Assembly: GCA_965224245.1 (NCBI GenBank)
Contig: OZ245046.1
Coordinates: 4,312,382-4,376,381 of the forward strand
Direction: 5' to 3'
Source: Candidatus Eiseniibacteriota bacterium
GTDB lineage: Bacteria; Eisenbacteria; RBG-16-71-46; CAZAMP01
Length of the DNA stretch: 64,000 nucleotides
Positions 30,480 to 62,330 of the stretch are shown here, in pieces. Below the pieces are notes generated by a model. That model made no database searches, was not told where the DNA came from, and saw only the letters and a list, made by a program, of their open reading frames with translations. Both the position numbers and the translations under genes were made by a program. The first letter of the stretch is position 1; each line of letters begins with the position of its first letter.

Positions 30480-30626
30480 CCGGCACCCACCCGAACCGGG
30501 GGGCGCTGGAGCATCGGCTCCGGTGCCCTCCAGCGACTCCATGACGCTCGCGCGATTCCCGGCTCTCGTGTCAGAATGCGGGCTCCGCGTCCGGAGGCCA
30601 GCACGAGGATCGGAGGACCGCCGCGG

Positions 30627-42700: not shown

Positions 42701-43122
42701 CGCGATCGGAACACGACGTGCGTCCCGTCGGGGCTCCAGCCGAGCACGGTCACGCCACGGGGATCCCAGGTCAGGCGTCGCGGCACGCCGCCGGCGACGT
42801 CCATCACGTAGACCTCGCGAGCCCCGTCATAGCTCGCGGCGAACGCCAGCGTTCGCCCGTCCGGGGAGAAGAACGCCGGCCCCTCCGATCCCTCGTCGGA
42901 CGTGATCCGCATCGCGGTGCCGCGCTCGATCGAGCCGAGCCACAGATCACCTTCGCTGGTGAAGACGATCTGATCTCCCGAGACGTCGGGACGGCGGAGA
43001 AACTGAGCGGCGGCCCCGGCCGGTGACGCGGTCGCGAGCGCCAGGGTCAACCCGCCGCCGAGACACGCCACGACGAGCCGACGGGAAAGGCGACGGAAAG
43101 GGGAGTGGACACGCGAGCGCAC
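39772..43122 (-). CDS. Tricorn-type S41 family protease
   Basis: IVFTSEGDLW, WKRYRGG, EWRQMFAETWR, FFYDPGMHGVDW, ELNCGH, a PDZ domain, DVRFNGGG, SGSNAE and GTRTWGG; GTG 43122 follows AGGAGG (start inferred). Confidence 0.95.
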   Translation of the reverse strand: MRSRVHSPFRRLSRRLVVACLGGGLTLALATASPAGAAAQFLRRPDVSGDQIVFTSEGDLWLGSIERGTAMRITSDEGSEGPAFFSPDGRTLAFAASYDGAREVYVMDVAGGVPRRLTWDPRGVTVLGWSPDGTHVVFRSRRGTTMRTRIWQVPLAGGAATRLPVPYGEFATLHPDGRIAYVPISGEWQNWKRYRGGFADDVWLATPSPDADAVPDFRRLTDDLGVDTQPVWAGDVIYFVSERDGVANLHALDPGSGDVTPATSYTDFEVRYPQSDGRVVVYEYGDGIGLYDVATGQTRSIHLDLRSDRIHARERRVSAHDQLFGFELGPTGKRILVSARGQILSAPAEHGDVRVVAADAAARCQYPEWSPDGAEVAYVSDVSGEEEIWIVPASGGEARQVTSGHTGPLGPIVWSPDGERLLTSDREMRTLLVDVASGAMTVVDQSDRGGSYDIVLSQYAFSPDGKWVAFTHLEPRWAWSVHLYEIATGETTRITDPAMSCYAPAFDPDGELLYFLADRELDPRYSPINRYFTYDQKMTKVTLVTLAAETRSPFLDENDREGATDDDASNEDDEDDNDDEDDNDDERELPDMTVDVDGIATRVVEVPVPADRYTRVVPIEKKLLLETYEGAEGDDGEMSGPRRLHTFDLEEKKAKVLVEALDEFDLSADRKKLLVRRGKRFTLLDAGAGEMPEDDGQVETDGWTLTIDPVAEWRQMFAETWRVARDFFYDPGMHGVDWPAVRDKYEPLLEAVAVRSDLSFLQREMVAELNCGHAYIVGGDEQRAPLIPMGYLGIDVEPVNDDVPGYRITRILAGDGFDLDARSPLLTPGVEVSVGDVIVAVSGAPVRADQELQALLVGTAGRAVTLTVNDRASFDGAREVFVEPMRSERRARYFDWVEGRRRYVLEHGGPDLGYVHIPNMSGRGFQEFGKHYYASLDRDGLIYDVRFNGGGYIHAMLILQMSSPRYSYFKPRYGASWSRQDWAFTGHAAALCNDQSGSNAEEFSDAFQRRGIGPLIGTRTWGGEVGSGGGYRLVDGGAVYIPNYAAWIPEGEWIIEGVGVEPDMIVEDDPAELMKGRDPQLDAAIAYLEGKIAEAPVPRPTPPPFPDKSSGGSDHW

Positions 43123-43288
43123 GCGGCACCTCCTGAATCGATGGAGACGAGAAGCGAACGCGTGACGATACCACGCCGCACGGGTCTCGGGATCGGAACT
43201 CTGAACGGCTGGATACAAGACCGCCCGCTCGTGGCCGGGTGCCTCGGCGGGCGGGTCGGGATCCGACCTCCCGGCGGAGTCCGCCGGC

Positions 43289-47036: not shown

Positions 47037-47052
47037 CGCATGTGGCGCGCCA
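47037..47052 (-). promoter_or_regulatory. Putative sigma54 -24/-12 promoter
   Basis: Minus-strand TGGCGCGCCACATGCG (GG-N10-GC) about 50 bp upstream of ATG 46988; a GAFTGA activator is encoded divergently. Confidence 0.6.
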
Positions 47053-47161
47053 GTCCGCCCGGGAGAGCCCCACGGATCGTGCAACCGGCCATCACGCGAA
47101 CGCTTGCGTTCGATCGTCCGGAGATCGGGGAGGACGCCCGCTGGCGGGAGGCGGCCCCGGG

Positions 47162-47199
47162 CGTCGAGAATCTCGACACCGGTGTGGAGGATCTCCACG
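47162..47199. promoter_or_regulatory. Tandem palindromic enhancer (UAS) sites for an NtrC-family activator
   Basis: CGTCGAGAATCTCGACA (47162-47178) and TGTGGAGGATCTCCACG (47183-47199), 21 bp centre to centre and 110-150 bp upstream of the sigma54 site. Confidence 0.65.
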
Positions 47200-47306
47200 A
47201 CCACGCGGTGGCGCGGCGTCGGGGCTCGGGATTCCCCTATACCCGCGTTTGCCGGAAAGGTCTTTCCTGAACGCGGGGTGTGCCTTCTCGAGTCGGCGAG
47301 GATGTC

Positions 47307-48989
47307 ATGCGATCTCCCATCGGCGTCCGGGCCTCGCGGCTGGGTGCCCGGCTGTTTCTGCCTCTGGTCGCGATCGTGGCCGTCACGTTCGCGATGCACG
47401 CAGTGGTGAACTACCGGACCTCGCGCAACGAGCTTCTCGGCTTCCTCCGATCGAACGCCGATCAGTCGAGCGATCTGATCCGGCGCGCCACCCACGACGG
47501 AATGCTCCTGAACCGGCTGGACGACGTGCAGGACACGATCACGCGCATCGTCGAGGGTCCGGGCATGGCGGCCATCCGCGTATACGACAAGGCCGGCGCC
47601 GTCGTCCTGTCGGCCCATCGGGACGAGATCGGCCAGCGGGCACCGATCACGTCGGACACGTGCGAGAGCTGTCACCAGCCCAATCACACGACCGAGGTCG
47701 GGCGCCTCGAGCGAAGCGGTCTGGCGCGGCTCTCGCGAGGCGAGGAGGTACTTCGCCACCTGTCGGTGATCCCGAACGAGCCCGCCTGTGCCGCCCCGGG
47801 CTGTCACGCGTCGCCCGACGAGGCGCCGATCCTCGGCGTCCTCGACATCGAGATGTCGATGCAGCCGGTAGAGTCCACTTTGCGCGCGGCGCAGGCCCGG
47901 ATCGCCCTGACCACGTTCGCGCTGATCGTGCTGATCGGATGGGCGTGCTGGGTGTTCATCGACCGGTTCGTGCATCGACCGGTCGCGGCGCTCACCGAGG
48001 GCACGCGACGGATCGCGAGCGGCGACCTCGAGACGCGGATCCGCGTGGAGGGCGGCCACGAGTTCGCCGACCTCGCGGGGTCCTTCAACGCGATGTCCGA
48101 GGATCTCCTGGCCGCCAAGCGCGAGCTCGAGACGTGGTCGCGCACGCTGGAGGAGAAGGTGCTGGACAAGTCGGCCGAGCTCCAGCGCGCGCACCGTCAG
48201 GTGCTCCACATGGAGAAGATGGCGTCGCTCGGCAAGCTGTCGGCCACGGTGGCTCACGAGCTCAACAACCCGATCACGGGGATGGTGAACTACACGCGTC
48301 TGATCGAGCGCGAGCTCGGACGGCAGCCGCTGGCGATGACCACGAAGGACGAGCTACTGCGCTACCTCGGTTTTCTCCACCGCGAGTGCCTCCGGTGCGG
48401 GAAGATCGTGTCGAACCTGTTGCTCTTCGCCAGGCGAACCGGCACCGAGATGGCCCCGGTGGATCTCCGCGTCGTGCTGGACCAGAGCCTGATGCTGATC
48501 GATCACCATCTGCACGTCAGCGGCGTCCAGCTGGAGAAGAAGCTGCCCGACCGCGACCTCACGGTCATCGCCGACGCGGGAGAGCTCCAGCAGGCGCTCG
48601 TGGCCTTGTTGATCAACGCGGTGGAGTCGATGGCGGGTCCGGACGCGGTCGACGAGCGGCTGACCGTCGAGGTCGTGGTCGAGGACGACGCGGTGCGAGT
48701 GGACATCCGCGACACCGGGGCCGGGATCGCCGCCGACGTGCTGCCGCACATCTTCGAGCCCTTCTACTCGACGAAGGACGAGGAGGGCGGCGTCGGGCTC
48801 GGGCTGGCGGTGGTCTACGGGATCGTCCAGCGTCACGGAGGCCGCATCGACGTCGAGTCGGAGACGGGGAGCGGCACCACGTTCCACCTGTGGATCCCGA
48901 GGGGCATCGAGTCGTTCGAACCGCGGCCGGGGCCCGACGACCGGCTGTCGGTGGTGGGTGGACCTCGCCGGGGAGGAGCGACGTCATGA
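47307..48989 (+). CDS. Sensor histidine kinase (HAMP, HisKA, HATPase) with periplasmic CxxCH and Cx4CH motifs
   Basis: Two TMs; CESCH and CAAPGCH; EKMASLG...VAHELNNP, DTGAGI, FEPFYSTK and GLGL motifs. Confidence 0.95.
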   Translation: MRSPIGVRASRLGARLFLPLVAIVAVTFAMHAVVNYRTSRNELLGFLRSNADQSSDLIRRATHDGMLLNRLDDVQDTITRIVEGPGMAAIRVYDKAGAVVLSAHRDEIGQRAPITSDTCESCHQPNHTTEVGRLERSGLARLSRGEEVLRHLSVIPNEPACAAPGCHASPDEAPILGVLDIEMSMQPVESTLRAAQARIALTTFALIVLIGWACWVFIDRFVHRPVAALTEGTRRIASGDLETRIRVEGGHEFADLAGSFNAMSEDLLAAKRELETWSRTLEEKVLDKSAELQRAHRQVLHMEKMASLGKLSATVAHELNNPITGMVNYTRLIERELGRQPLAMTTKDELLRYLGFLHRECLRCGKIVSNLLLFARRTGTEMAPVDLRVVLDQSLMLIDHHLHVSGVQLEKKLPDRDLTVIADAGELQQALVALLINAVESMAGPDAVDERLTVEVVVEDDAVRVDIRDTGAGIAADVLPHIFEPFYSTKDEEGGVGLGLAVVYGIVQRHGGRIDVESETGSGTTFHLWIPRGIESFEPRPGPDDRLSVVGGPRRGGATS

Positions 48990-50353
48990 GCGCGTCCGAG
49001 GGACGCATCCTGATCGTGGACGACGAGTTCTCGGTCCGGGATTCCCTGACGAACTGGTTCGGAAAAGACGGCTACGACGTGACCGCGGCGGAGAACGCGG
49101 CGGAGGCGCTCCGATCCCTGGAGGGCGGCTCGTACGACGTCGTGCTCCTCGACATCAAGATGCCGGGGATGGACGGCATGGCGCTCCTGGAGCGTGTCCG
49201 CGAGATCGACCCGAGCATGGCGGTGATCATGATGACCGCATTCGCATCGGTGGAGACCGCGGTACGCGCGCTGAAGGAAGGTGCGTTCGACTACGTCACC
49301 AAGCCCATCGATCCGGACGAGCTCTCCCATCTCGTGCGCCGCGCGATCGATCAGCGCCGCCTGCGCGACGAGAACCTCCGGCTCCGCGAGACCCTGGACG
49401 AGGTCACCGGCGTCCCGCCCATCATCGGCGACAGCCCGGCCATCCGCGAGGTGATGCGCCTCGTGGACCAGGTGGCCGGGACCGACGCCACGGTCCTCGT
49501 CCTCGGCGAGAGCGGCACCGGCAAGGAGCTCATCGCGCGGGCGATTCACGCCGCGAGCCCCCGCCGCTACTTCCCCCTGGTCCCGGTGAACTGCGGCGCG
49601 CTCCCGGCGGAGCTCCTGGAGAGCGAGCTCTTCGGCCACGAGAAAGGCGCGTTCACCGGGGCCCAGCAACGTCGCAAGGGACGCATCGAGATGGCCGGCG
49701 GGGGCACGCTGTTCCTGGACGAGGTGGGGGCCATTCCACCCCGGATGCAGGTCGATCTCCTTCGGGTGCTCGAGACCCACGAGTTCACCCGTCTCGGCAG
49801 CTCACAGCCGATCCACGCCGACTTCCGCGTGATCTGTGCGACCAACGAGGACCTGGAGAAGGCGGTCGCGGACGGTCGGTTCCGCGAGGACTTCTTCTAC
49901 CGCATCAACGTGTTCACGATCCTGGCGCCGCCGCTCAGGAGCCGTCGCTCGGACATCCGCCTCCTCGCCGAGCACTTCCTCGACGAGCTCGGCCGCAAGA
50001 TGAACAAGCGCTTCACCGGCTTCGCGCCAGACGCCATGGAGCTTCTGACCAGCTACCACTGGCCGGGCAACGTGCGCGAGCTGTACAACGCGATCGAGCG
50101 GGCGATGGTCGTGGGCCGGCCGCCGACGATCCGGTCGGACGACATGCCGGTGTGGCGCTCGCGCGCCGGGGTCGAGACACACAGCGCCCGCCTCGCCGAC
50201 ATCGAGCGGCGGCACATCGGCAAGGTGCTCGACGAGACCGGATGGAACATCACCCGGGCGGCCGAGCTGCTCGACATCGACCGGGCCACCGTCTACAGCA
50301 AGATCAAGAAGTATGATCTGGAGCCGCCTCAGGCGCGCACGAACGGCACATGA
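48986..50353 (+). CDS. Sigma54-dependent response regulator (NtrC/AtoC/ZraR family)
   Basis: REC domain (ILIVDDE, LLDIKMP), GESGTGKE, GAFTGA, WPGNVREL and a Fis-type HTH; ATGA overlap with the kinase gene. Confidence 0.96.
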   Translation: MSASEGRILIVDDEFSVRDSLTNWFGKDGYDVTAAENAAEALRSLEGGSYDVVLLDIKMPGMDGMALLERVREIDPSMAVIMMTAFASVETAVRALKEGAFDYVTKPIDPDELSHLVRRAIDQRRLRDENLRLRETLDEVTGVPPIIGDSPAIREVMRLVDQVAGTDATVLVLGESGTGKELIARAIHAASPRRYFPLVPVNCGALPAELLESELFGHEKGAFTGAQQRRKGRIEMAGGGTLFLDEVGAIPPRMQVDLLRVLETHEFTRLGSSQPIHADFRVICATNEDLEKAVADGRFREDFFYRINVFTILAPPLRSRRSDIRLLAEHFLDELGRKMNKRFTGFAPDAMELLTSYHWPGNVRELYNAIERAMVVGRPPTIRSDDMPVWRSRAGVETHSARLADIERRHIGKVLDETGWNITRAAELLDIDRATVYSKIKKYDLEPPQARTNGT

Positions 50354-51108: not shown

Positions 51109-51984
51109 TCAGCCCTGGGCTCCCCGGTCGCCGCTGCCGCGTCGCTTGCGCCAGTCCCCCCGAGGCTCGCCCTGCCAGGCGAGCATCGCCTGGAGGCTGG
51201 TCGCGAAGCCGTCGATGCCCGGGAACAAGCTCAGGCGGTTCACGTTCAGGCGGTTCAGCCACGCGAGCAGGTACCACTGATTGTCGAGGGTGATGGGGAT
51301 CTCGATCTTGATCACACGCGTCCGCAGCACGGTGGGCGTGCCGAGCGACCGGAGGTTGCTCATGAACGACTTGCCCGGATTCATGGGGACCAGGAACACG
51401 CCTTGCTGCACGGCCAGCCGCTCGTTGACGTAGTACGGCACCAGCGGAACCACGAGGGTCGGCTCCTCCTCCAGGAGCACCGTGACCGCCGCGGGACTCT
51501 TGAGCTTCGGATCGATCCGGAGGGCCTCCCGCACGGCCGGCACCTTGCTGCGCCGGAGCCGATCGAACATCCACTGCTGGTCGATGGCCCAGACCGCGCA
51601 CGTGTCACCGGGGTTGGCCTGCTCGATCGCGAAGAAGAGCGCGATGTGAAACGAGTACGTCCAGTCGAGCAGTCGCGTGGGCGCGCCGTGATGCTGCATG
51701 AGCGCGTACCACTCCATGAAGTCGTCCGCACGCGGGACGCGTCCCGTGAACCGATGGAGGTGTCTGACGAAGTGGCGGAAGACGCGCCACTCGAGATACG
51801 CCTGATGTGAGAGCGGCCTGCCGAAGCGGTCGGTCGCGATCCGCTCCAGGCTCGGCTTGAGATCCCAGCTCGAACTCCCCTGGCCGCGAAACACCCACTG
51901 GATGCTCGGATCGGAGAAGCGCGCCTCGATCAGATCCTGAACCGACTGCCACGAGTCGCAGCTCTCGACGTGATACCAGGTCAT
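51109..51984 (-). CDS. FRG domain-containing protein
   Basis: WVFRGQ..SSW.L.PSL.R, LMQHHGAPTRLLDWT.S..IALFFA, RLAVQQGVF and LSLFPGIDG; ATG follows AGGAGG. Confidence 0.93.
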   Translation of the reverse strand: MTWYHVESCDSWQSVQDLIEARFSDPSIQWVFRGQGSSSWDLKPSLERIATDRFGRPLSHQAYLEWRVFRHFVRHLHRFTGRVPRADDFMEWYALMQHHGAPTRLLDWTYSFHIALFFAIEQANPGDTCAVWAIDQQWMFDRLRRSKVPAVREALRIDPKLKSPAAVTVLLEEEPTLVVPLVPYYVNERLAVQQGVFLVPMNPGKSFMSNLRSLGTPTVLRTRVIKIEIPITLDNQWYLLAWLNRLNVNRLSLFPGIDGFATSLQAMLAWQGEPRGDWRKRRGSGDRGAQG

Positions 51985-52151
51985 CCGCACACCTCCTGTG
52001 CCGGTCGAACCCGGACCATACACCGGGCAGGGCGACCGTTCGACGGTCGTGAGACGCCCCCGGCCGGGGGGGGGCACCCGGCCGGGGCCGATGCCGACCG
52101 GACCGCATGCCGTGCCCCACAGATCGCTTCGTTCAGCGGGGACGTCCGTCC

Positions 52152-52181
52152 GTGTGATTCCGGTACCCCCCACGCGCCCAA
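52152..52181 (+). promoter_or_regulatory. Putative ECF promoter GTGTGATTCCGG-N10-GCGCCCAA (copy 1)
   Basis: Both blocks and the spacer length are identical to the copy at 56215-56186 on the minus strand; lies 72 bp upstream of ATG 52254. Confidence 0.7.
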
Positions 52182-52253
52182 TCCGAGCGACCACCCGGGC
52201 GTGCCGGCGGAGGCCGCCCGCACTGACGGCATCCACGTTACAGGAGGCACGAC

Positions 52254-54719
52254 ATGCTCCGCTGGAACGCCGGCGCGCGCCGCGGGCGCGCGTTCACGGC
52301 GGCGCTCGCGTGCGCGCTCGTCTGGCTCGGGATCGCAGCCGCCGGCTCGTCCGCCGCCACGTACTTCGTCGACGCCGCACGGCCCGACGACGCGGGTAGC
52401 GGAACGAGCTGGGACGACGCCAAGAGGACGATCGACGCCGCCATCGCCGCCTCGGCCGCCGGAGACGCCATCCTCGTCAAGTACGGCGCCTACGCGATCG
52501 ACGACGACATCGTGCTCGTCTCGCATCGTCGCATCACGTCCGACGACGGCACGCACCTCGACTGGAGCTCGGCCGATCCCGATTCGAGTCTCTGCGTCGT
52601 CGACGCCGGCCAGGGCTCTCGTGTGCTCACCATCCACGGCGCCGCGATGACCGGACCGACTCACGTTCGAGGCCTCGAGCTGACCGGCGGCGACGGCACG
52701 TACAGCTCCGCCGACCCGTCCGCCGCCTATGGAGGCGGCGTCTACGTCGATGGGGGCGCCGACGTCACGCTCGAGCGCTGCTGGATCTCGGGCAACGTCG
52801 GCGGTACCAGCTACAACGGATTCGGCGGTGGGGTCGCGTGTCTGGGGACAGGGACCGACGTCTCGATCGAGGACTGCCGGATCTCGGGAAACACCGCGGC
52901 CACACCCCATCACGGGTACGGCGGCGGCATCTACTGCGACGGCGTCACCGCCACGATCGTCGGGAACGTGATCGAGGGCAACCTCGGATCCGTCCACCGG
53001 ACCGGGGTCGGCGGCGGCATCTACGCCGCGAACAGCGACGTCGTCGTCCAGTCGAACACGATCACGGACAACGTCGCGGCCGGACCCAGCTCGGGCGCGG
53101 GCGGCAACGGCGGCGGCGTCTATCTCTTCTCGGGCACCGCCGACGTCGGGCTGAACACGATCACCGGCAACAGCGCCGCCGAGGCGACGTCGAGAAGCGG
53201 TGCCGGCGGCGGGATCTACTGCAGCACCGCCGAGACGTACATCTGGGAGAACGTGGTCGGCGAGAACGTCGCCTCTCGGGGGGGACGGGGCAACGGTGGC
53301 GGGATCTACTGCCGGGGATCCGATTCGGTCGTACGCGACAACGAGGTGTACGACAACGTGGCCAGCACGTCCACCACAGGAGGCTACTACGCGTACGGCG
53401 CCGGGGGCGGCATCGTCGCCGGCGAGGGCAGCGGCATTCACGTGCTCCGCAACCGTGTGTACGGGAACGTCGCCTCTCGCTACGGAACGGGCAACGGAGG
53501 CGGGATCTGGATCAACAACATCGCGCAGATCGTGGAGCGGAATCTCATCTACGACAACGTCGCGTCGGAGGGGGCGCCCGGCGCCGGTGGCGGCGTCTTC
53601 ATCAACGGCACGACGCGCGCCGAGGTCGTCAACAACACCCTGTACCACAACGCGAGCCAGACCGGCGGCGACGGGGGAACCGGCAGCGGGATCTATCACA
53701 CCTCGGGCGGCACCCCGACGATCCGCAACAACGCCATCGCCGCTCACGACGTGCCCGGCAGCGACATGGTGGGGATCTACGAGACCTCCGCCCTGACCGT
53801 CGAGTACAACTGCTATCACGACAATCCGGGCGGGCACTACAACGAGCACGTGGTCTCGCTGAACGAGGGCATCGGCGAGCCCCGCTTCACCGACGCCGCG
53901 GTCCGCGACTTCGAGCTGCTGTACGACTCACCCCTGATCGAGGCCGGGCATCCCGACACGGAGGTGCCCGAGAACGGCGGCTGGCGCGTCGACGTGGGCG
54001 CGATCGAGTACACGGGGATCCGCCACGCCCGCGCCGTCCCGGGCCCCGGTGAGTACCTGTTCGGCGGACAGGTCCGCGCAAAGGTGACCGTCACCACGTT
54101 GGGCACGCTGTCCGAGATCGACATGACCGTACATCCCGGCGAACGGCATCCCGATGCGGTGAGCGTCGTCGATCGCTGGTTCGACATCCAGGCGGACGAA
54201 GGAGGTGGAACCACGTTCGAGCTCACGCTCAGCTATCTCGACGAGGAGCTGAACGGGCACCGGGAGAGCGACCTCACCCTCTGGCGGCGGGACGGATCGT
54301 CGTGGGAGGGACCCAAGGTCCCCACGGACGCCGATGCCGACGACGACTGGCTGACCGTCAGCGGGGAGACCGCGTTCAGCGACTGGGTGATCAGCGGCTT
54401 CGACGTGATGCTCGACGTCCCTGGCGAGACCGTGCTCGGGCCCGCCGTCGCCCTCGGAGCCCCGGCGCCGAACCCGTTCCGCGTCGTGAGCAGGCTGCGG
54501 TTCGACCTGGCCGACCGGGGCCGGACCACGCTGGCGGTCTATCGAACCGACGGGCGGCGGGTTCGCACGCTGATCGACGCGGTGCTCCCGGTCGGCGTGC
54601 ACGAGATCACCTGGGATGGTCGCGACGACGCGGGGCACGCGGTCGCGTCCGGTACCTATTTCTGCCGGCTGTCGACGGCACGGGGTCGAGTCGACCGTCG
54701 ACTGACCCTCGTGCGATGA
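52254..54719 (+). CDS. Secreted right-handed parallel beta-helix repeat protein with C-terminal FlgD-Ig/T9SS-like domain
   Basis: Signal peptide, ATYFVD...G.GTSW.DAK.TI..AI, many GGGI(Y/V)...N.I..N repeats, SPLIEAG...DVGAIEY and PNPF...WDGRDDAG..VASGTYF; AGGAGG RBS. Confidence 0.92.
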   Translation: MLRWNAGARRGRAFTAALACALVWLGIAAAGSSAATYFVDAARPDDAGSGTSWDDAKRTIDAAIAASAAGDAILVKYGAYAIDDDIVLVSHRRITSDDGTHLDWSSADPDSSLCVVDAGQGSRVLTIHGAAMTGPTHVRGLELTGGDGTYSSADPSAAYGGGVYVDGGADVTLERCWISGNVGGTSYNGFGGGVACLGTGTDVSIEDCRISGNTAATPHHGYGGGIYCDGVTATIVGNVIEGNLGSVHRTGVGGGIYAANSDVVVQSNTITDNVAAGPSSGAGGNGGGVYLFSGTADVGLNTITGNSAAEATSRSGAGGGIYCSTAETYIWENVVGENVASRGGRGNGGGIYCRGSDSVVRDNEVYDNVASTSTTGGYYAYGAGGGIVAGEGSGIHVLRNRVYGNVASRYGTGNGGGIWINNIAQIVERNLIYDNVASEGAPGAGGGVFINGTTRAEVVNNTLYHNASQTGGDGGTGSGIYHTSGGTPTIRNNAIAAHDVPGSDMVGIYETSALTVEYNCYHDNPGGHYNEHVVSLNEGIGEPRFTDAAVRDFELLYDSPLIEAGHPDTEVPENGGWRVDVGAIEYTGIRHARAVPGPGEYLFGGQVRAKVTVTTLGTLSEIDMTVHPGERHPDAVSVVDRWFDIQADEGGGTTFELTLSYLDEELNGHRESDLTLWRRDGSSWEGPKVPTDADADDDWLTVSGETAFSDWVISGFDVMLDVPGETVLGPAVALGAPAPNPFRVVSRLRFDLADRGRTTLAVYRTDGRRVRTLIDAVLPVGVHEITWDGRDDAGHAVASGTYFCRLSTARGRVDRRLTLVR

Positions 54720-54858
54720 GCTGACGAGGGCCGAGGGTGCCCCCGCGGAGAGCACGCGAGCGCACGATCTCCCTGGTCGCGCGCTCGCTTTCGTCTAGCG
54801 CCGTCGGGGCACGCCGTGCGTGACGAACGTGTCGGGCCGGGATGCGGCGGTGAGACGC

Positions 54859-55569
54859 TCACGGCATCCGGAACGTGCCGACCCGTGAACGCGCGATCTC
54901 GTCTCGGTTTCGGTAGGCGACCACACACCACGCTACCGCGGCGCCGGATGGCGGCGGATCGGGGACGCGCGTGGGCTGGAAGACCAGGAGCGTGTCGGGG
55001 CCACCGTCCACGATCGCGTGAACCGTGCCGTCGTCGTCGAGAAGGTGCAGCTCGTAGCGGTTCGCTCCGTCGACCGGACGCCAGGTCAGACGCACCCGTC
55101 CGCCCGCCATCCTCTCGGGCTCCTCGGCGATCGAGACCACGTCCGTGCCGGCCCGGTCACCGCGGAGGCGGAGCTCGGGCTCCCGGTCGTCACGAGCGAG
55201 CAACGTCATGGCCGACACCACGACGACGAACGCGGCGCCGGCACCGAACGCGGGCCTCCAGCGCGGGCCGAGGAACGCGTCGAAGAGGCGGTCCAGTCGG
55301 CTCGGGCGGGTCGACCGGGCGGCGGCCGCCGACCGCCGGGTCGCGCTCGCTCCGGTGAGGATCTCCCGTTCGAGCACGTCCGAGAGGCGCGCCGCGGCGT
55401 CGGTCGGGTCCGCACCCGCGGGGACATCGGCGGGATCGAGAAACGACCGATACGACGCCAGCCGCGCCCGGCAACGCGGGCAGTCATGCAGGTGGTCGAG
55501 CGCGCGGTCACCCGGAGCGAGCCCGGCGATCGTCTCCAGCTCGTCGATTCGGTAGCAGGCGTCGCTCAT
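54859..55569 (-). CDS. Putative zinc-finger (ZAS-type) transmembrane anti-sigma factor
   Basis: HLHDCPRC (Hx3Cx2C), a single TM and a C-terminal beta-sandwich; ATGA overlap with the sigma gene. Confidence 0.82.
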   Translation of the reverse strand: MSDACYRIDELETIAGLAPGDRALDHLHDCPRCRARLASYRSFLDPADVPAGADPTDAAARLSDVLEREILTGASATRRSAAAARSTRPSRLDRLFDAFLGPRWRPAFGAGAAFVVVVSAMTLLARDDREPELRLRGDRAGTDVVSIAEEPERMAGGRVRLTWRPVDGANRYELHLLDDDGTVHAIVDGGPDTLLVFQPTRVPDPPPSGAAVAWCVVAYRNRDEIARSRVGTFRMP

Positions 55570-56180
55570 GGTGATGATCCCCAGCGGTGCGCGTCGTCGT
55601 CTCGTGCTCTCGCTGCGAGTGCGCTGCGAAGCTTTCGCCGCGCGCTCTGCAGCACCCCACGGGCCCCCGACGCGGACCCGATCTTCAGGATCACGGTGAT
55701 GTCGTCCACGGCGACCCGCTCGAAGCAGCGGAGCCAGATCGCCTCCTGCTCGACGGGCTCGAGCGTCCGCCGGATCAGCGCGAGCGACGCCTCCTCGTCG
55801 AGACGCTCTTCGAGCTCACGATCGGGACCGATGCCGTCGTCCATCACGGCATCGGGATCGGCGTGCTCGTCGGTCATGAGCGCCGGTCGACGGAGCTGAC
55901 TCAAGCAACGATTCCGCGCGATCGCGAAGAGCCACGACGAGAAGCGCGCCCGCCCCTCGAACGTGCCGAGATCCCGGTATGCCGCCAAGAGCGTCTCCTG
56001 GGCCAGATCCAGCGCCCGCTCGTGGTCGCGGACGTGGCGAACGCACCACAGATACACGCGCCCCTGGTACCTGGCGAACAGGTCGGCGACGTCGCGTCGC
56101 ACGCCGTCGGCCTCCGGCTCGGTCTGGAACCGGAGCACGATCTCCTCGTCCGTTCGGTCGGGCGCATTCAATCGGTTCAT
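55566..56180 (-). CDS. ECF RNA polymerase sigma factor
   Basis: LFARYQGRVY, ALDLAQETLL.AY, FEGRARFSSWLF.IARNRC and region 4 ending ARRKLR. Confidence 0.93.
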   Translation of the reverse strand: MNRLNAPDRTDEEIVLRFQTEPEADGVRRDVADLFARYQGRVYLWCVRHVRDHERALDLAQETLLAAYRDLGTFEGRARFSSWLFAIARNRCLSQLRRPALMTDEHADPDAVMDDGIGPDRELEERLDEEASLALIRRTLEPVEQEAIWLRCFERVAVDDITVILKIGSASGARGVLQSARRKLRSALAARARDDDAHRWGSSP

Positions 56181-56185
56181 CGAGC

Positions 56186-56215
56186 TTGGGCGCACGACCA
56201 CCTCCGGAATCACAC
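56186..56215 (-). promoter_or_regulatory. Putative ECF promoter GTGTGATTCCGG-N10-GCGCCCAA (copy 2, probably autoregulatory and leaderless)
   Basis: Ends 5 nt before the sigma ATG at 56180, with no RBS; includes the stop codon of the CHAT gene. Confidence 0.7.
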
Positions 56216-59080
56216 CGATCGGGGCGCCGGCCGGGTCGAACGGTCGATCGATCCGGCGCGACGCCGCCACCACACCGCGGTCACCCCGAGACCGATCCCC
56301 AGCCCGATCAGGGCGCGGCCGGGCCAGGAGTGGCGACGCTCGAGGGCGATGGTGGCTCGACCGTCCCCCATGACCGTGAAGCCGGCCCAGTAAAAGGGAT
56401 GTGTCGTCTCGGGATCCTCTCTCATCCGACGCTGCGCCGTCCCGAGCGCGCCCGCCACCGAGCGTCCGCGCTCGAGGGCTCGATAGAAGACGTCCATGAA
56501 GCGCGCGGTCTGTGCGTCGTCGACGGGCCAGAGCGTCGAGACCACGCACCGCGTGCCGGCCACGAGGAATGCCGTACCGAGCCCCAGCATGCCCTCTCCG
56601 GAGACGATTCGCCCACCCGCGCTCTCGCATCCGGAGAGCACCGCCAGGCGCGCATCGAGATCCAGCGACACGATCGCCTCGGCCCGCAGCATCGAGTCCG
56701 CCTCGGCACTGCCGGCACCGCCGGGTCCGCTGACGTCGGCCGAGTCGGCCGATCCCGAGCCCCCGGCGCCGAGGGCGATTCCCGATCGCCAGGGCCGCTC
56801 GTCGTCCACGGTGATGTGTCCCGCGAGGTGGACGACGTCGTAGCCGACCAGGTCGGCGCCGCGGAGCGATCCCGCCTCGTCGTCCCTCCACAGATGCACG
56901 TGACGATAGCGTCCGGCGAGCTGCCGGACTTCGCCCCGCGCGCCGGCCAGATCCCCTCCGACCGACGGGCCGGCGGCCGCATAGGCGAGCGTGGACGGCG
57001 CCCCGGCTGCCGTCGAAGGCGCAACGTCGCGAAGAAGCGCGAGCACGGCACAAGACGGCACGCGCAGAACCGTCGCGTCGACGTCGCCGGCCAGCAGCGG
57101 GCGCAGCGGAATCCGATGGAGCGCGCCGTCGGGAACGTAGACGATACCGCTCGCGGCGGCGATGAGATCGGACACGCCCGCGAGCAGCGCGCTGGCCAGC
57201 GTGGCCGTGGTACGGGCCAGGAGCTCGAGGTCGGCGTCGCCCGATGCGCTCGACGGGGGCGCGGCGAGGAGACCCCGGCAGATCCCGACGTTGCGGGCGA
57301 GCCTCGTCTCGGTCATTCCCACGCGAACCACCCGACAGGAGTCCGTCGTCACCGCGAACACCAGTGTCTGATCGGATGCCGCGTGAATGTCGAGTAGTAG
57401 CTCTCCGGGCACGAGCACCCGGGTCTGGATCGCCGAGAGCGTCAACGCGTCCGTCGGCGCCCGTGCTCCCGCATCCTCGCCCAGCATGCGCTCGATCAGC
57501 GCGCGCGATCGAAAGCGCTGCAAGAACGCGAACGCGCGCTCTCGCCGCGCGGCCACCGGCAGCTGGGCGGGATGCTCGAGCAGCAGATCGGCGAGCGCGC
57601 CGTGAATCGCCGACCCGAGCTCCGCGCGCTGCTCCCGCCACATCGGATCGTCGGGCCGACTCCGCATGGCCTCCCAGGAGTCCGCGGCCTGTCGCAGATA
57701 CACGTATGCGCTGTCGGGGTACCCGAGCCCTCGATGGGCCGCCGCCGCGATGCGGCGAATGTGGAGGTCGACCTTCACCGGCAGCGGCTCGTCGTCGGCC
57801 TCGGCCGCGATCGCCCGCGCCAACGGAAGCACCTCGGCGTAGCGGCCGGCGTGGAGCAGGAGCTGTGCGAGCTCGCCCTCGATCACGACCCGCTTCTCGC
57901 GCCCGAGCCGGGGGACGATCTGGGGGAGGTGTTCCTCCATCAGGGTGACGGCGGCGGCCAGCGAGTCGGCGTCGTCGAGCGTGCGCGCGAGCCCCTTCAG
58001 GGCATCGGCCTCGAGGGCGGGCAGGTCGGTCTCCTGAAGCAGGTGAAGGGCGGCCCTGTAGTGCCCGACCGCCTCACCGGATCGGAGCCGGTCCCGCGCG
58101 ATCTCCCCGAGCGCGATGCGCGCGGAGGCCTCGTGATCGCGAAACCCGAACTCCCGGGCGATCGCGAGCTGCTCGTTCAACAGGCGCTCGGCGTCCTCGT
58201 ACCGGCCCAGCTCTCGAAACGCCAGCGCCGCGTTGGAGGCCGGCGCGATGGCGGCGCGCAGCCGGTTCTGCGCGCGCAGAACCGCGTACGCCTCGTCCCA
58301 GTGGACGGCGGCGCGATCGGGGCGGCCGGCGTTCGCCTCGAGGAGCCCCAGGTTGGTCAGGCAGTTCCCCTCGAGCGACGCCTGATCGTGCTCGCGCGCG
58401 TAGCGAAGCGCGTCCGTCCAGCTCCGTCGCGCCGCGTCGACGTCTCCCGCGCGGTGCTGGCAGATCCCGAGAAACAGCTTCGCCCCGTTCTCGTCGAGGG
58501 CGAGGTCGAGCCGCTGGAAGAGGGCGATCGCGCGCTCCAGCCGACGGGCCGCGCTCTCGAGCTGCCCGGCGCCGATCTCGCGACGACCGAGGTACAGATC
58601 CCCGCGCCCCACGAACTCGTCGAGGCCGGCGCGCTCGGCCAGCTCGATCACCCGCTCGTACATCGCGATCGCGCGTGGCGGCCGCCCCTGGGCATCGGCG
58701 GCCTGGGCCTGGCGGAAGAGGCTCCGGCACCACAGGAGCGTGTCGGCCACCTGCGCCGAGAGCGAGGCCGCCTCGGCCAGTGCCGACTCCGCCTCGGCCG
58801 GGCGGTTCATGAACCGGAGCACGCGTCCGATCCGGAACGCGGCGCGTGCCTCGTCACCGGCGGCTCCGGCCCGGTGACGCTCGTCTCGCAGGGCGCCGAG
58901 GACGACCAGCGCCGAGTCGAGACGGCCTTCGGCCCGCAGCGAGTCGGCGTGGGAGAACGCGGCATCCACGTCGGCCGCGCCCGCCGGTCCGGTCGTCTCG
59001 GCGGTGGCGAAGGGCGCACGCCCGTGCGCCCAGAGGATCGCCGTGAGGCACAGCAGTGCCGTCGTCAGAGAGGCCCGCAC
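56210..59080 (-). CDS. TPR-CHAT (caspase-like clan CD) protease with N-terminal signal peptide and C-terminal TM anchor
   Basis: TPR repeats; VPDGALHRIP, VVHLAGH (His), LAVLSGCES (Cys), GEGMLGL..AFL.AG, STLWPVDD and HPFYWAGF; C-terminal TM followed by WWRRR. Start is GTG 59080 or ATG 59209. Confidence 0.93.
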   Translation of the reverse strand: MRASLTTALLCLTAILWAHGRAPFATAETTGPAGAADVDAAFSHADSLRAEGRLDSALVVLGALRDERHRAGAAGDEARAAFRIGRVLRFMNRPAEAESALAEAASLSAQVADTLLWCRSLFRQAQAADAQGRPPRAIAMYERVIELAERAGLDEFVGRGDLYLGRREIGAGQLESAARRLERAIALFQRLDLALDENGAKLFLGICQHRAGDVDAARRSWTDALRYAREHDQASLEGNCLTNLGLLEANAGRPDRAAVHWDEAYAVLRAQNRLRAAIAPASNAALAFRELGRYEDAERLLNEQLAIAREFGFRDHEASARIALGEIARDRLRSGEAVGHYRAALHLLQETDLPALEADALKGLARTLDDADSLAAAVTLMEEHLPQIVPRLGREKRVVIEGELAQLLLHAGRYAEVLPLARAIAAEADDEPLPVKVDLHIRRIAAAAHRGLGYPDSAYVYLRQAADSWEAMRSRPDDPMWREQRAELGSAIHGALADLLLEHPAQLPVAARRERAFAFLQRFRSRALIERMLGEDAGARAPTDALTLSAIQTRVLVPGELLLDIHAASDQTLVFAVTTDSCRVVRVGMTETRLARNVGICRGLLAAPPSSASGDADLELLARTTATLASALLAGVSDLIAAASGIVYVPDGALHRIPLRPLLAGDVDATVLRVPSCAVLALLRDVAPSTAAGAPSTLAYAAAGPSVGGDLAGARGEVRQLAGRYRHVHLWRDDEAGSLRGADLVGYDVVHLAGHITVDDERPWRSGIALGAGGSGSADSADVSGPGGAGSAEADSMLRAEAIVSLDLDARLAVLSGCESAGGRIVSGEGMLGLGTAFLVAGTRCVVSTLWPVDDAQTARFMDVFYRALERGRSVAGALGTAQRRMREDPETTHPFYWAGFTVMGDGRATIALERRHSWPGRALIGLGIGLGVTAVWWRRRAGSIDRSTRPAPRSV

Positions 59081-59298
59081 GCTGCTCTCCCCCGACTCCA
59101 CGCGCTCACGCGCGTGCTCCAAGGCTCGATCGCCACCGGGCGAGCCATTCGTGTGCTCGCCGAACGAGCGCGTGCGGCGAATCGCGAGACCGCGAATCGC
59201 TGGTCGCATTGTACTCCCGCCGGGCGGTGTCCGGAATCAGCCGTCGAACGAAAAGGCAGCGTGATCGGGACCAGTGGGAGAGTCCGAGCGGAGGGATG

Positions 59299-59330
59299 GA
59301 GGCGACCCCCTCACGGGAGCGGGTCGCCTC
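59299..59330 (-). terminator. GC-rich hairpin downstream of the BNR-repeat gene
   Basis: GAGGCGACCC / GGGTCGCCTC 10-bp inverted repeat with additional inner pairing; no U-tract. Confidence 0.45.
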
Positions 59331-59347
59331 TCGACGTGATCAGCGCA

Positions 59348-61696
59348 CTAGCGCAGGATGAACAGCTTGCTGTGGAAACTGCCGAAGCGGGTGTCGAACC
59401 GGATGAAGTATGCCCCGGACGCGAGCAGGCTCCCGTCGTCGGAGCGCGCGTCGAACGCATACTCGTGCCGGCCCGCCTCGAACGCGCCCTCGGCGATCGT
59501 GCGCACGAGCTGACCCTTGACGCTGAACAGCCGCAGCGATCCCTCGGTCGGGCGATCCAGCTCGTAGTGGATCTTGGTGCTCGACTTGTACGGGTTCGGC
59601 GACGCACCCAGCGCCACGAACGGGAACGGGTTGGTCGGCGGCTCCAGCGGCTCGACGGCCACGACGATCCCGCCCTCGACGAGGGTCCGCGTGTGCAGCA
59701 CGAGCGCCGACCCGTCGACCTCGACGGACGCGGTGTGGTCGAGCTCCTGGGCGCCGGTGAACGTGCCCGCGATGCCGTTCAGCGACATCGTGCCCGACAC
59801 GGCGAACACGTAGTCGGAAACGCCGTCGGTCAGCGTCATGTCGCCCGCGATCTCCACCGTGCCCGGGCCGGTGGACGTCAGACCGATGAGCCCGCTCCAG
59901 GAGTCGGTGAACGCGATGCCGCCGAGGGCGGCGTCGGACTCCGCGGTGAAGTCGAAGTCGATGTCCGAGGTGCCGGTGCGGACGATCGCGAACGTCCCCG
60001 TCACCGTGCCCTCGGTGGCGGTCAGCGTGACGGCGCCGCTGATGTCCTCGCCCCCGATCTGGAAGACGCCCGGATCCTCGGCCGGCGTGGCCAGGAATCC
60101 GAGCGCGAGGCCACCCACCGCCAGCTGCGCGTTGGAGTCGACCGCCGGCGGCGGATCCATGCGGATCTCCGCCTCGTTGGGGATGAACCACGCCGTGCCC
60201 GACGCGGCGAATGGGGCCACGGACGCAATGTCGCCCGTCACCGAGAGCGTGTGCACGTCGTCGAAGCGCGAGAAGATGACGTCGGGGTTGCCCTCGCGCG
60301 CGTCGGACCACGCCGCGAACACCGACCGCTCGTCGCTGTCCATGTCGTTGTAGTCGCCGAAGTTCGGAATGGCGTCGGCGGGCACGCCGCACCAGGCCAC
60401 CGACATGTCGGACATGCGCCGGTTCGGGCCGAACGTGACGCCGCCGTCGACCGACTGGGTCACGTAGAAGTCGCAGAGGCTCGTTCCGCCCGCGTCGTTG
60501 CGGCGATCGTACCAGCCCACGGTGACGCGGCCGTCGGGGCCTACCGACAACGTCGGGAAGAACTGCTCGGTGTCGTCGGAGGGTGTGTTGTCGTTGAGCT
60601 GCTTGAACCCCTGGAAGCTCGCACCGTGGTTGTCGGAGTACTTGTAGTAGATGTTGAACTCGCCGCCCGCGCCGTTCACGTAAGACGCGTGCAGGCGCCC
60701 GCGGTTTTGACCGTCGCTGCGATCCACCTCGACCGACGGCCAGCGCAGGTTGCGGTCGCGGTTGAAGCACTGCGGATTCTCGCCCGAGAAGAACCCCATC
60801 GTCGCGATCTGGTTGATCCCGGTCGACCAGCTCGAGCCGCCGTTGGAGGAGTACCGCACGAACGCGGTGCCGCTGGCCGCCGGATCACCCTCGGCCCACG
60901 AGACGTACACCCCGCCGTCGATGCCGACCACGGGATACGGTCCACTCGAGCCGAACCCGTCGACCACGAGCCGCGGGGACGCCCACGCGAGCCCGTCGGT
61001 GTCCGACCACGTGAGCTCGGTGTTTCCGGTGTTGATGTTGTTGTACGCCATGTAGATCCGGTCGATGGTGGGATCGTAGTCGAGATACTCCTTGTCGAGG
61101 AAGGCGGCCCCGTACCGGATCGGTGGATTCCAGGTGAGCACGTCCGAGATGAACTCGCCGCGGTTGACGGCGAGGCCACTGGGATCTCCGAGGCTGTTCA
61201 GGCCGATCGACGCGTAGACCCACGTGCCGGCGTTGGTCTTCACGATCGTCGGGTCGCCGAGGACCCCGATGGTGGCCGTCTCGGGCATGCTGCCGCCATC
61301 GGTCCAGGTCTCGCCGCGGTCGCGGGAGTAGCCGACGCCGCTGTTGCTGCCCACCCCGGCGAACCCCCGCGAATCGTTCCAGCCGATGACGACGTCGTCA
61401 CCGTCGACCCAGATGCCGACCTCGGACTGAACCGAGGCGCCGGGCTCGCCGGTCCGGTCGTTGACCAGCTTGTTGTCCGGAGGTACCGCGCGCCCGGGAG
61501 GCACGGGCTGGGTCTGAGGCGGATCGTAGTCGCCAACCGGCGGCTCGATCGGCTCGGGAAACGCGGAGCGGAACGCCGTCCCGGTCGTGGAGTCGGCGCC
61601 CGGGGCGTCCGACGTGGCTCGCTCGCGTGCTATGAATCCTCCGGCGACGACCAGGATGCTCACCAGAGCGATGGCCGCGGTGCGATGCGCTGTCAT
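59348..61696 (-). CDS. Secreted BNR/Asp-box (sialidase-like propeller) protein with C-terminal FlgD-Ig/T9SS-like domain
   Basis: Asp-boxes YSRDRGETW, YSSNGGSSW, YSDNHGASF and QSVDGGVTF; FGDYN; C-terminal SPNPY...KGQLVRT...LASGAYF; GGAGGT RBS. Confidence 0.9.
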   Translation of the reverse strand: MTAHRTAAIALVSILVVAGGFIARERATSDAPGADSTTGTAFRSAFPEPIEPPVGDYDPPQTQPVPPGRAVPPDNKLVNDRTGEPGASVQSEVGIWVDGDDVVIGWNDSRGFAGVGSNSGVGYSRDRGETWTDGGSMPETATIGVLGDPTIVKTNAGTWVYASIGLNSLGDPSGLAVNRGEFISDVLTWNPPIRYGAAFLDKEYLDYDPTIDRIYMAYNNINTGNTELTWSDTDGLAWASPRLVVDGFGSSGPYPVVGIDGGVYVSWAEGDPAASGTAFVRYSSNGGSSWSTGINQIATMGFFSGENPQCFNRDRNLRWPSVEVDRSDGQNRGRLHASYVNGAGGEFNIYYKYSDNHGASFQGFKQLNDNTPSDDTEQFFPTLSVGPDGRVTVGWYDRRNDAGGTSLCDFYVTQSVDGGVTFGPNRRMSDMSVAWCGVPADAIPNFGDYNDMDSDERSVFAAWSDAREGNPDVIFSRFDDVHTLSVTGDIASVAPFAASGTAWFIPNEAEIRMDPPPAVDSNAQLAVGGLALGFLATPAEDPGVFQIGGEDISGAVTLTATEGTVTGTFAIVRTGTSDIDFDFTAESDAALGGIAFTDSWSGLIGLTSTGPGTVEIAGDMTLTDGVSDYVFAVSGTMSLNGIAGTFTGAQELDHTASVEVDGSALVLHTRTLVEGGIVVAVEPLEPPTNPFPFVALGASPNPYKSSTKIHYELDRPTEGSLRLFSVKGQLVRTIAEGAFEAGRHEYAFDARSDDGSLLASGAYFIRFDTRFGSFHSKLFILR

Positions 61697-61769
61697 GCGA
61701 CACCTCCGTGTGTGGGTGGAGGGAGATGGCCGGAAAGTGAAATTGTAGCGCGTCCCGGCGCTCCGGTGG

Positions 61770-62330
61770 TCACCGGCCGAGAAACTTTCGGTGCAGGATG
61801 TGCGGCTCCTCGTTGCTGAACGGCGGCGGCAGCGGCAGGGCCAGCCCGCGGGCGACCTCGACGAACCCGAAGGCCCAGTGCAGGTCGATCGACGGCCGGT
61901 TTCCCTCGCCGGTGAAGTAGTAGACGACGTCCGTGCGCTCACGGAGCCATTCGAGGCGGCGTGCGGTCAGCGCGCGGCCGATCCCCATGCGCCGGTGGCT
62001 GCGATCGACCTCCACGCCCGTCAGATACCAGCCGTCGGGCACGACGGAGGACCCGCCCGCGTCCTTCCAGGTTTTGTAGGCGCACTTGCCGTACCCCGCG
62101 ATCCGACCGCCGACCACCCCCACGCACGTGAACGCGCGTTCATCGCGGGCGGCGCGCTCCAGCGCGGCCCGGACCAGGGGGGCGAGCTCCGCGGGTGGCC
62201 GGTCCTCCCGCTCGACGTCCACGTGCGCGATCGCGAGCGCGTCGTCGGGAAGGGCGTCACGAACGACGATCGGCGCCGGGCGTCCGTGCCGCTCCGGCTC
62301 GTACGGCGATCGGGTGTTGCGCCTGGGCAT
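61770..62330 (-). CDS. GNAT family N-acetyltransferase
   Basis: V...HRRMGIGRAL acetyl-CoA motif and N.PSI.LH..FGF. Confidence 0.9.
   Translation of the reverse strand: MPRRNTRSPYEPERHGRPAPIVVRDALPDDALAIAHVDVEREDRPPAELAPLVRAALERAARDERAFTCVGVVGGRIAGYGKCAYKTWKDAGGSSVVPDGWYLTGVEVDRSHRRMGIGRALTARRLEWLRERTDVVYYFTGEGNRPSIDLHWAFGFVEVARGLALPLPPPFSNEEPHILHRKFLGR

Follow-up and report, generated by a model that had tools for sequence, protein, structure and literature searches.

Analysis of a 64,000-nucleotide stretch of DNA from Candidatus Eiseniibacteriota bacterium (GenBank assembly GCA_965224245.1, contig OZ245046.1, positions 4,312,382 to 4,376,381 of the forward strand; this whole stretch is referred to here as the window) revealed a cassette of three co-directional genes on the minus strand at 54859–59209. 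These genes encode a TPR-CHAT protease (56210–59209), a sigma factor of the extracytoplasmic function (ECF) type (55566–56180) and a single-pass, ZAS-type anti-sigma factor (54859–55569). We regard it as close to certain that this triad is a conserved signalling module, and the anti-sigma factor was found to have an invariant arginine in the flexible linker just outside the membrane. It is quite possible, if short of probable, that the CHAT protein is the site-1 protease of the module and cuts the anti-sigma factor at the L-R-G motif that contains this arginine. A preliminary description of this DNA, made from the letters and open reading frames (ORFs) of the window, had proposed a protease, sigma factor and anti-sigma factor in this region. 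All three genes were located at the coordinates it gave, and the sigma stop codon overlaps the anti-sigma ATG as ATGA, the coupling it had noted.

Conservation of the triad and the proteins it encodes

A scan of one genome per species, with an alignment of orthologues, identified 80 related CHAT loci. Most of these were in metagenome-assembled genomes of Candidatus Eisenbacteria and Krumholzibacteriota, with a few from Gemmatimonadota, Latescibacterota and other groups. An ECF sigma gene, called with a profile built from 32 sigma genes of the window's genome, was immediately adjacent to the CHAT gene, and on its strand, in 57 of the 80 loci, and two gene orders were observed. The order seen in the window (CHAT, sigma, anti-sigma) occurred in 27 loci, with gaps of 3–178 nt between CHAT and sigma, and the order sigma, anti-sigma, CHAT occurred in 30 loci, with 579–1828 nt between sigma and CHAT. 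Three of the remaining loci had a sigma gene elsewhere in the locus and 20 had none; in 12 of these 20 the flanking sequence on at least one side is shorter than 1 kb. The gene following sigma belonged to the same family as the window's anti-sigma gene in 39 of the 57 loci, in both gene orders, and the ectodomains of its products were ~109–123 residues long. The grouping of the three genes into one cassette by the preliminary description is therefore borne out by the survey.

The anti-sigma family is common in the phylum. Among 151 sampled genomes, 96 had a match at E values up to 1e-5, and in 47 the best E value was no higher than 1e-30; a single genome had as many as 9 copies. A search of 1.84 billion clusters yielded 868 representatives at E values up to 1e-30, including some long proteins whose match is due solely to Fn3 repeats. 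The best 150 of these 868 comprised 141 stand-alone proteins of 213–272 residues and 9 long Fn3-repeat proteins. No fusion of the anti-sigma factor to a CHAT domain was seen among those best 150 or in a search of longer proteins, which is weak evidence. The window's genome had 16 CHAT matches and 47 matches to sigma region 2, and an ECF sigma gene was found no more than a few kb away from at least 10 of its CHAT paralogues. The window's own anti-sigma factor was the sole match to the Fn3-family profile in that genome. Most of the ~1000-residue TPR-CHAT paralogues were noted to lie downstream of an ECF sigma gene and a gene for a single-pass anti-sigma factor of another family, with [LIVMT]RG shortly after the membrane helix (e.g., on contig C1 at 4258928–4263088, 4961077–4965321, 4898014–4902804, 3130120–3134667 and 3943659–3953158).

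The TPR-CHAT protein is 999 residues long from the ATG at 59209, or 956 residues from an alternative GTG at 59080. Pfam CHAT (PF12770) matched residues 668–949 (56363–57208; E 1.1e-50, 173.2 bits against a cut-off of 24) and Pfam TPR families matched residues ~120–410. An AlphaFold model based on a 69-sequence alignment (pLDDT 86.5, pTM 0.80) has a helix at residues 41–61, a TPR superhelix of regular helix pairs at 78–543 (57581–58978), an alpha/beta CHAT domain at ~600–950 and a terminal helix at 964–985 (56255–56320). The caspase-like domain has the intact His-Cys dyad reported in the preliminary description: H798 (codon 56816–56818) and C861 (codon 56627–56629) pair with the dyad H862 and C907 of the Myxococcus xanthus protein DdvA when a CHAT-domain profile is aligned to sequences from the PDB. 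C861 and a second histidine, H794, are each conserved in 57 of 57 relatives, and H798 in 56 of 57. The acidic residues E760, E872 and D898 are invariant as well and are candidates for lining a pocket that would accommodate an arginine side chain. At one locus that has no adjacent sigma gene (L072:7402–8520), glutamine replaces the catalytic histidine (HFAGQS), and the product is possibly a pseudo-protease.

Both ends of the protein bear on its location. The N-terminal hydrophobic segment SLTTALLCLTAILWA (residues 47–61; 59027–59071) is predicted to be the h-region of a signal peptide or a signal anchor. A short signal-like N-terminus was present in all 11 orthologues of an alignment made up of these sequences and the window protein, which is ~43 residues longer when read from the ATG at 59209. 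Because the orthologues begin ~43 residues shorter, the GTG at 59080 may be the true start; it is preceded by GGGGGAG and is predicted to give a conventional signal peptide. Whichever start is used, the body of the protein is predicted to be outside the cytoplasm. The C-terminus consists of the segment ALIGLGIGLGVTAVWW followed by RRR. This membrane helix is kept in most orthologues: a hydrophobic C-terminal segment with a basic tail was present in 8 of the 12 aligned sequences, and a hydrophobic window occurred within the last 60 residues at 61 of the 80 related CHAT loci. Since CHAT is the C-terminal domain, the predicted anchor would keep the catalytic domain within ~13 residues of the membrane surface. 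Of the two membrane-targeting features in the preliminary description, the C-terminal helix with its basic tail is apparent in both the sequence and the model, and the signal peptide stands as a prediction.

The sigma factor (204 residues) matched Pfam Sigma70_r2 at an E value of 3.8e-16 and, over residues 31–188, TIGR02937 (sigma70-ECF) at 60.2 bits against a cut-off of 42.9, which places it with the group 4 (ECF) sigma factors. The anti-sigma factor (236 residues) has the zinc-type motif H26-x3-C30-x2-C33 (HxxxCxxC; 55471–55494). Its model, made from a family alignment of 40 sequences (pLDDT 84.5), has an N-terminal helical domain, a membrane helix at residues 102–125 (55195–55266), a linker with pLDDT below 50 at residues 137–141, and an outer beta-sandwich (54862–55146). 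In structure comparisons, for which Foldseek was also run, this ectodomain (model residues 142–236) matched Fn3 folds with a VIA Z of ~9 and root-mean-square deviations of 2.4–2.8 Å over 87–91 residues. A wide fold search with the complete model gave matches that were taken up by the Fn3 domain and none that were informative on the N-terminal domain. Based on the ATGA overlap and the conserved adjacency of the genes, we infer that this protein pairs with the adjacent sigma factor.

Both the CHAT domain and the anti-sigma ectodomain are predicted to be external to one and the same membrane, in keeping with the shared compartment assumed in the preliminary description. Co-folding of CHAT residues 75–960 with anti-sigma residues 126–236 gave a score of 0.21 against a mark of 0.32, which speaks neither for nor against binding. 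The genome gave four matches to PF02163 (M50 site-2 proteases), the best with an E value of 1.7e-60, and thus encodes an M50 homologue outside the window.

The invariant arginine of the anti-sigma linker

Comparison of the 40 aligned anti-sigma sequences showed that only three columns, F43, R136 and W163, are invariant. R136 is within the motif [V/I/L]-L-R-G, whose leucine is present in 34 and whose glycine in 31 of the 40 sequences, and this motif is set in an otherwise variable stretch rich in proline, glycine, glutamate and serine. The arginine is positioned in the linker that is disordered in the model, 11 residues past the membrane helix and before the start of the Fn3 domain at ~142. The same pattern was found among 141 diverged representatives at 50% identity or less. 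R136 was kept in all 141 of these, L135 in 121 and G137 in 100, and the zinc ligands H26, C30 and C33 were kept in 118, 130 and 130, respectively. The higher conservation of an arginine in a disordered linker than of the metal ligands demands a functional reason, and the simplest, judging from this conservation, is that the arginine forms a recognition or cleavage site for a protease. L135-R136-G137 (55159–55167) is therefore our candidate site for site-1 cleavage or recognition.

Related motifs were observed in anti-sigma factors of other families. Within the window's genome, [LIVMT]RG occurred no more than 45 residues after the membrane helix in five of six anti-sigma candidates located within 10 kb of a CHAT paralogue and in none of eight others (Fisher's exact probability ~0.003, a hand calculation for paralogues that are not independent). 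The sixth candidate near a CHAT gene, which does not have the motif, is kinase-like and was probably miscalled. In the related loci, VLRG was present in all three anti-sigma factors from outside the family that had a detectable membrane helix. Cleavage after arginine is known for metacaspases and gingipain R. Separase likewise cuts after arginine in an unstructured motif, according to the available part of the DdvA study (PMC11506125).

Promoter motif, regulon and surroundings of the cassette

The 29-nt bipartite motif TGTGATTCCGG-N10-GCGCCCAA, which resembles an ECF-type promoter, has exactly two matches in the window and had none in 100 shuffles. Across the 6.9-Mb genome, a relaxed search gave 22 matches, and no such site was among them other than these two. 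The first copy (56186–56214, minus strand) is directly upstream of the sigma gene and ends 5 nt before its ATG, so the sigma transcript would be leaderless or nearly so; the stop codon (TGA) of the CHAT gene lies within its −35-like element TGTGAT. A similar geometry was seen in several related loci, where the start codon was a few nucleotides past the GCGT core in the examples inspected. The second copy (52153–52181, plus strand) is 72 nt upstream of the ATG of a gene for an 821-residue secreted protein (52254–54719, plus strand), which is a probable regulon target. That gene has an AGGAGG ribosome-binding site, and its product has a signal-like N-terminus and a C-terminal FlgD_ig match (Pfam E 3e-8), a sorting domain of the type associated with the type IX secretion system (T9SS). 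Look-alikes of the protein found with a language model, at a score of 0.89, have Beta_helix, FlgD_ig and Por_Secre_tail domains, a lead only, and its passenger is probably a right-handed beta-helix.

Taken from the placement of these motifs, it is likely that the sigma factor drives its own gene and that of the 821-residue protein. The preliminary description had the released sigma factor inducing itself and the secreted beta-helix gene, and the motif copies before both genes agree with this; no exact copy was found upstream of the CHAT gene. The latter region has a partial look-alike, CTGATTCCGG (59231–59240, minus strand), with 9 of 11 −35-like bases and 3 of 8 −10-like bases. The strict motif was also not found before CHAT in any of the five loci of the CHAT-first order where it was detectable before sigma. 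Since the exact promoter is between the CHAT and sigma genes, self-induction would cover the sigma and anti-sigma genes and not demonstrably the protease. The position of CHAT outside demonstrable sigma control in this gene order suits an upstream signalling role, which is a thin argument.

Across the related loci, the motif family TGTGAT-N15/16-GCGTC was found before sigma in 16 of 57 and after the triad in 10 of 50, and the motif bound by the sigma factor probably varies between subfamilies. A gene for a large protein with an FlgD_ig-type C-terminal domain followed the triad in 19 of 50 loci, and the product of one of these (L020) has a Pfam Beta_helix match. A cluster of 411-residue ORFs found downstream in 24 loci was considered as a fifth component and rejected; it had no Pfam match, and its representative overlaps an ORF for a 1622-residue sorting-domain protein in another frame. 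The ORF is probably a shadow of the large sorting-domain gene.

The window is ~70% G+C, and 35 ORFs were called in it by third-position GC content. No CRISPR-like array was found in the window and no cas family was matched by Pfam among the 35 ORFs, as the preliminary description had stated. For the CHAT protein, PADLOC reported nothing beyond a weak match to BovA (8.7e-9) and a generic one to TPR (1.6e-6). A scan of 54600–59500 found no sigma-70 promoters or intrinsic terminators. Upstream of the CHAT gene is a gene (59348–61942, minus strand) for an 864-residue protein that weakly matches BNR repeats and has a FlgD_ig / Por_Secre_tail domain at its C-terminus. The protein is cargo-like, the second such sorting-domain product to flank the cassette, and its gene is without a copy of the sigma-type promoter. 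After the stop codon of this gene, at ~59303–59335 on the minus strand, is a GC-rich inverted repeat (GGCGACCC...GGGTCGCC) that may be a terminator lacking a T-run. Divergent from the gene for the 821-residue protein is a gene for an FRG-domain protein (51109–52236, minus strand), which starts at 52236, ~55 nt downstream of the 52153–52181 promoter and on the opposite strand.

Other neighboring genes in the window encode a sigma-54 activator, an M54 peptidase, a GNAT acetyltransferase and a family 2 glycosyltransferase. A sigma-54-dependent response regulator (47042–50353, plus strand) has receiver, AAA+ and HTH_8 domains and, if the first GTG is its start, an N-terminal region of ~650 residues with no Pfam match. 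This gene model is uncertain, as the ORF calling split the frame at 47280–48986. A Sigma70_ECF (PF07638) sigma gene (30576–31187, plus strand) is followed directly by a gene for a 983-residue Ser/Thr kinase with a long TPR array (31213–34161, plus strand), and this pair looks like a kinase-regulated ECF system. The window also has a gene for a tricorn-like protease of 1148 residues (39775–43218, minus strand) with PD40 repeats and Tricorn_C1, PDZ_Tricorn and Peptidase_S41 domains.

A proposed site-1 role for CHAT, its alternatives and known systems

We infer the topology, the cleavage, the nature of the signal and the site-2 processing in the mechanism proposed here. The TPR-CHAT protein would leave the cytoplasm and be anchored through its C-terminal helix to the outer face of the cytoplasmic membrane, with its caspase-like domain near the membrane. 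The anti-sigma factor would bind the ECF sigma factor in the cytoplasm through its N-terminal zinc-type domain, cross the membrane once and present, on the outside, a flexible linker followed by the Fn3 domain. CHAT would be activated by a signal that the TPR array, the Fn3 domain or both detect, and it would then make the site-1 cleavage by cutting the linker at or beside the invariant arginine of [V/I/L]-L-R-G. The remainder of the anti-sigma factor would be removed by an RseP-type site-2 protease and cytoplasmic proteases. The freed sigma factor would transcribe the sigma/anti-sigma operon from the promoter abutting its start codon and the gene for the 821-residue protein from the identical promoter. 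In favor of CHAT as the site-1 protease are the synteny, the precedent of the DdvA fusion, the retained dyad, the linker motif, the occurrence of this motif across families, the duplicated promoter and the presence of an M50 homologue.

Several points weigh against such a role for CHAT. In the 30 loci with the order sigma, anti-sigma, CHAT, the protease is inside the sigma-controlled operon and directly upstream of the secreted protein gene, a position that fits equally well with CHAT being an output of the system. Eight loci that have at least 1.7 kb of flanking sequence on both sides lack an adjacent sigma gene, and the strict promoter motif was detectable before sigma in only 16 of the 57 loci. 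None of the 40 aligned anti-sigma sequences matched any Pfam anti-sigma model (E up to 0.01), a chance zinc-ribbon match being the one exception to an empty result; the NCBIfam model 'antisigma' matched the window protein at an E value of 0.0057 and 16.7 bits against a cut-off of 100. The assignment as an anti-sigma factor rests, in the absence of a Pfam match, on gene position, the motif and the helical model. The comparison of paralogues is small (n = 14 proteins), involves proteins that are related to one another and depends on crude ORF calling. The case for arginine as the residue preceding the cut is made only by analogy to separase, metacaspases and gingipain R. Other CHAT proteases, the craspases, cut after methionine or leucine, as stated in the available part of the DdvA study (PMC11506125). 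The invariant arginine could also serve another protease or make some other contact.

A different interpretation is that CHAT is an output or accessory of the system, a periplasmic protease that processes, for example, co-regulated sorting-domain proteins, and that the anti-sigma factor is inactivated by a generic site-1 protease or by ligand binding to the Fn3 domain. This would account for the presence of CHAT downstream of sigma and anti-sigma, in the same direction, in 30 of 57 loci, for the second sigma-type promoter after the triad in 10 of 50 loci and, in 19 of 50, for the large FlgD_ig-type gene. Processing of T9SS sorting domains is also known for clan CD proteases, PorU among them. 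In the window, however, the CHAT gene precedes the exact promoter and has only a partial look-alike upstream of it, and the strict motif was before CHAT in none of the five CHAT-first loci where it preceded sigma. An output role would, in addition, leave unexplained an invariant linker arginine that is common to CHAT-linked anti-sigma factors of different families. DdvA, according to the available part of its description (PMC11506125), shows that an anti-sigma domain and a TPR-CHAT region can work together in one polypeptide. We consider an output role unlikely.

Slightly less likely again, in our view, is that CHAT is a non-proteolytic co-sensor. The TPR array and the Fn3 domain would then shield the anti-sigma factor as RseB does RseA, another protease would cut once a ligand breaks the complex, and the dyad would be for autoprocessing or another substrate. 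TPR arrays are protein-binding modules, the CHAT protein and the anti-sigma factor are predicted to be tethered to the same membrane, and the bulky TPR-CHAT region of DdvA is described as blocking RseP until it is removed (PMC11506125, available part). However, conservation of the dyad (57 of 57 relatives for the cysteine and 56 of 57 for the histidine) points to a proteolytic function, and a co-sensor offers no reason for a linker residue to be more conserved than the zinc ligands. Finally, the CHAT gene might be beside an ordinary ECF sigma/anti-sigma pair by chance, as both gene types are numerous in the genome (16 CHAT and 47 sigma region 2 matches). We consider this very improbable, as 57 of 80 loci, drawn from many genomes, preserve the link, in two gene orders and with the same anti-sigma family in 39, and chance adjacency is thereby contradicted by the synteny survey.

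A site-1 role for the CHAT protein would have implications beyond this locus. Somewhat more tentatively than for the window's own protein, we hypothesize that membrane-anchored periplasmic TPR-CHAT proteins are widespread, signal-gated site-1 proteases that cut separate ECF anti-sigma factors after the invariant arginine of a [V/I/L]-L-R-G motif shared by several unrelated anti-sigma families. At least 10 parallel channels per genome would be possible, and DdvA would be a special case in which the parts are fused. If CHAT does cut the anti-sigma factor at this arginine, caspase-like proteases would join the initiators of regulated intramembrane proteolysis, which would also account for the enlarged repertoires of CHAT and ECF genes in Eisenbacteria, Krumholzibacteriota and related phyla. 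In DdvA, the enzyme and its substrate share one chain. In the split form, the two are encoded by separate genes and there is a precise candidate site, which reduces the question of how a periplasmic TPR-CHAT region controls an ECF sigma factor to two separate proteins.

The proposed mechanism resembles classical regulated intramembrane proteolysis (RseA with DegS and RseP; RsiW with PrsW and RasP) in having a single-pass anti-sigma factor, an extracytoplasmic site-1 cut and an M50 site-2 protease. The site-1 enzymes of the classical systems belong to the serine or metallo proteases, and the gene for DegS, for one, does not lie next to rseA, whereas here a clan CD cysteine protease from the same cassette would make the cut. 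The ECF54 group has CHAT, subtilase and carboxypeptidase genes in its conserved context, and proteolytic control has been proposed for it; in the available part of its source it is described without an anti-sigma factor (PMC8999054). A CHAT-domain protein in the conserved neighborhood of the sigma gene is thus common to both, but a conserved anti-sigma factor is present in the window module.

The preliminary description took as its precedent the type III-E CRISPR systems, in which the TPR-CHAT protease Csx29 of the craspase is tied to an ECF-type sigma factor (RpoE) through the cleavable, sigma-binding Csx30. That likeness is real, but the craspase is cytoplasmic, RNA-guided and requires Cas7-11, whereas the window is without a cas gene or array and its CHAT protein is predicted to be exported. 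M. xanthus DdvA, which the preliminary description did not name, is closer and is the best match in the PDB by both fold and sequence. In a Foldseek search of the PDB with the CHAT model, DdvA was ranked first (8rw5, E 5.2e-17) and fifth (8rot_A, 8.3e-16), followed by human separase and Csx29, with TM-scores that were modest (0.42–0.48), as expected for long flexible superhelices. Separase has a similar overall TPR-like/CHAT architecture and is among these top fold matches, but it is a soluble eukaryotic enzyme of the cell cycle with no link to a sigma factor. The best match of a CHAT-domain profile to PDB sequences was also DdvA (8rot_B, E 8.3e-7). By sequence, DdvA was detected only with a profile restricted to the CHAT domain, as the full-length profile of the window protein and its 11 orthologues gave TPR proteins only among the matches listed, and phmmer with the CHAT domain alone gave no matches to PDB sequences.

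DdvA, as described in the available part of its study (PMC11506125), has a cytoplasmic zinc-type anti-sigma domain, a transmembrane segment and a periplasmic TPR-CHAT region of ~900 residues, and deletion of the latter makes DdvA a substrate of RseP. Its authors propose, without proof, that CHAT cleaves the flexible juxtamembrane linker and that RseP then acts, and they note that self-cleavage can be validated only once the signal is known (PMC11506125, same part). A CHAT site-1 step has thus already been proposed for DdvA, which lowers the novelty of our proposal. In the literature found, the split architecture, the Fn3 anti-sigma family, the arginine motif and the breadth of the system in an uncultured phylum are undescribed, and the supplementary tables on DdvA or on ECF classification may list such contexts.

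Both systems couple a TPR-CHAT region with a His-Cys dyad to an ECF sigma factor and a zinc-type anti-sigma domain across the membrane, and in both a flexible juxtamembrane linker is the proposed target of the site-1 cut that precedes RseP. In contrast to DdvA, the protease and anti-sigma factor of the window are encoded by separate genes and the protease has its own C-terminal anchor. The window anti-sigma factor has an Fn3 ectodomain, with which DdvA is not described in the available account, and the target gene here encodes a secreted beta-helix-like protein, whereas that of DdvA is a CBASS/CRISPR island. The hosts also differ, with DdvA-like proteins reported, in the available part of that study (PMC11506125), only in Myxococcota and one Comamonas, whereas the loci described here are in Eisenbacteria and Krumholzibacteriota. 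The gene order sigma, anti-sigma, CHAT corresponds to DdvA split after its membrane helix, which provides a Rosetta-stone argument for a functional link between the separate proteins. The window locus is a split version of the DdvA/DdvS system.

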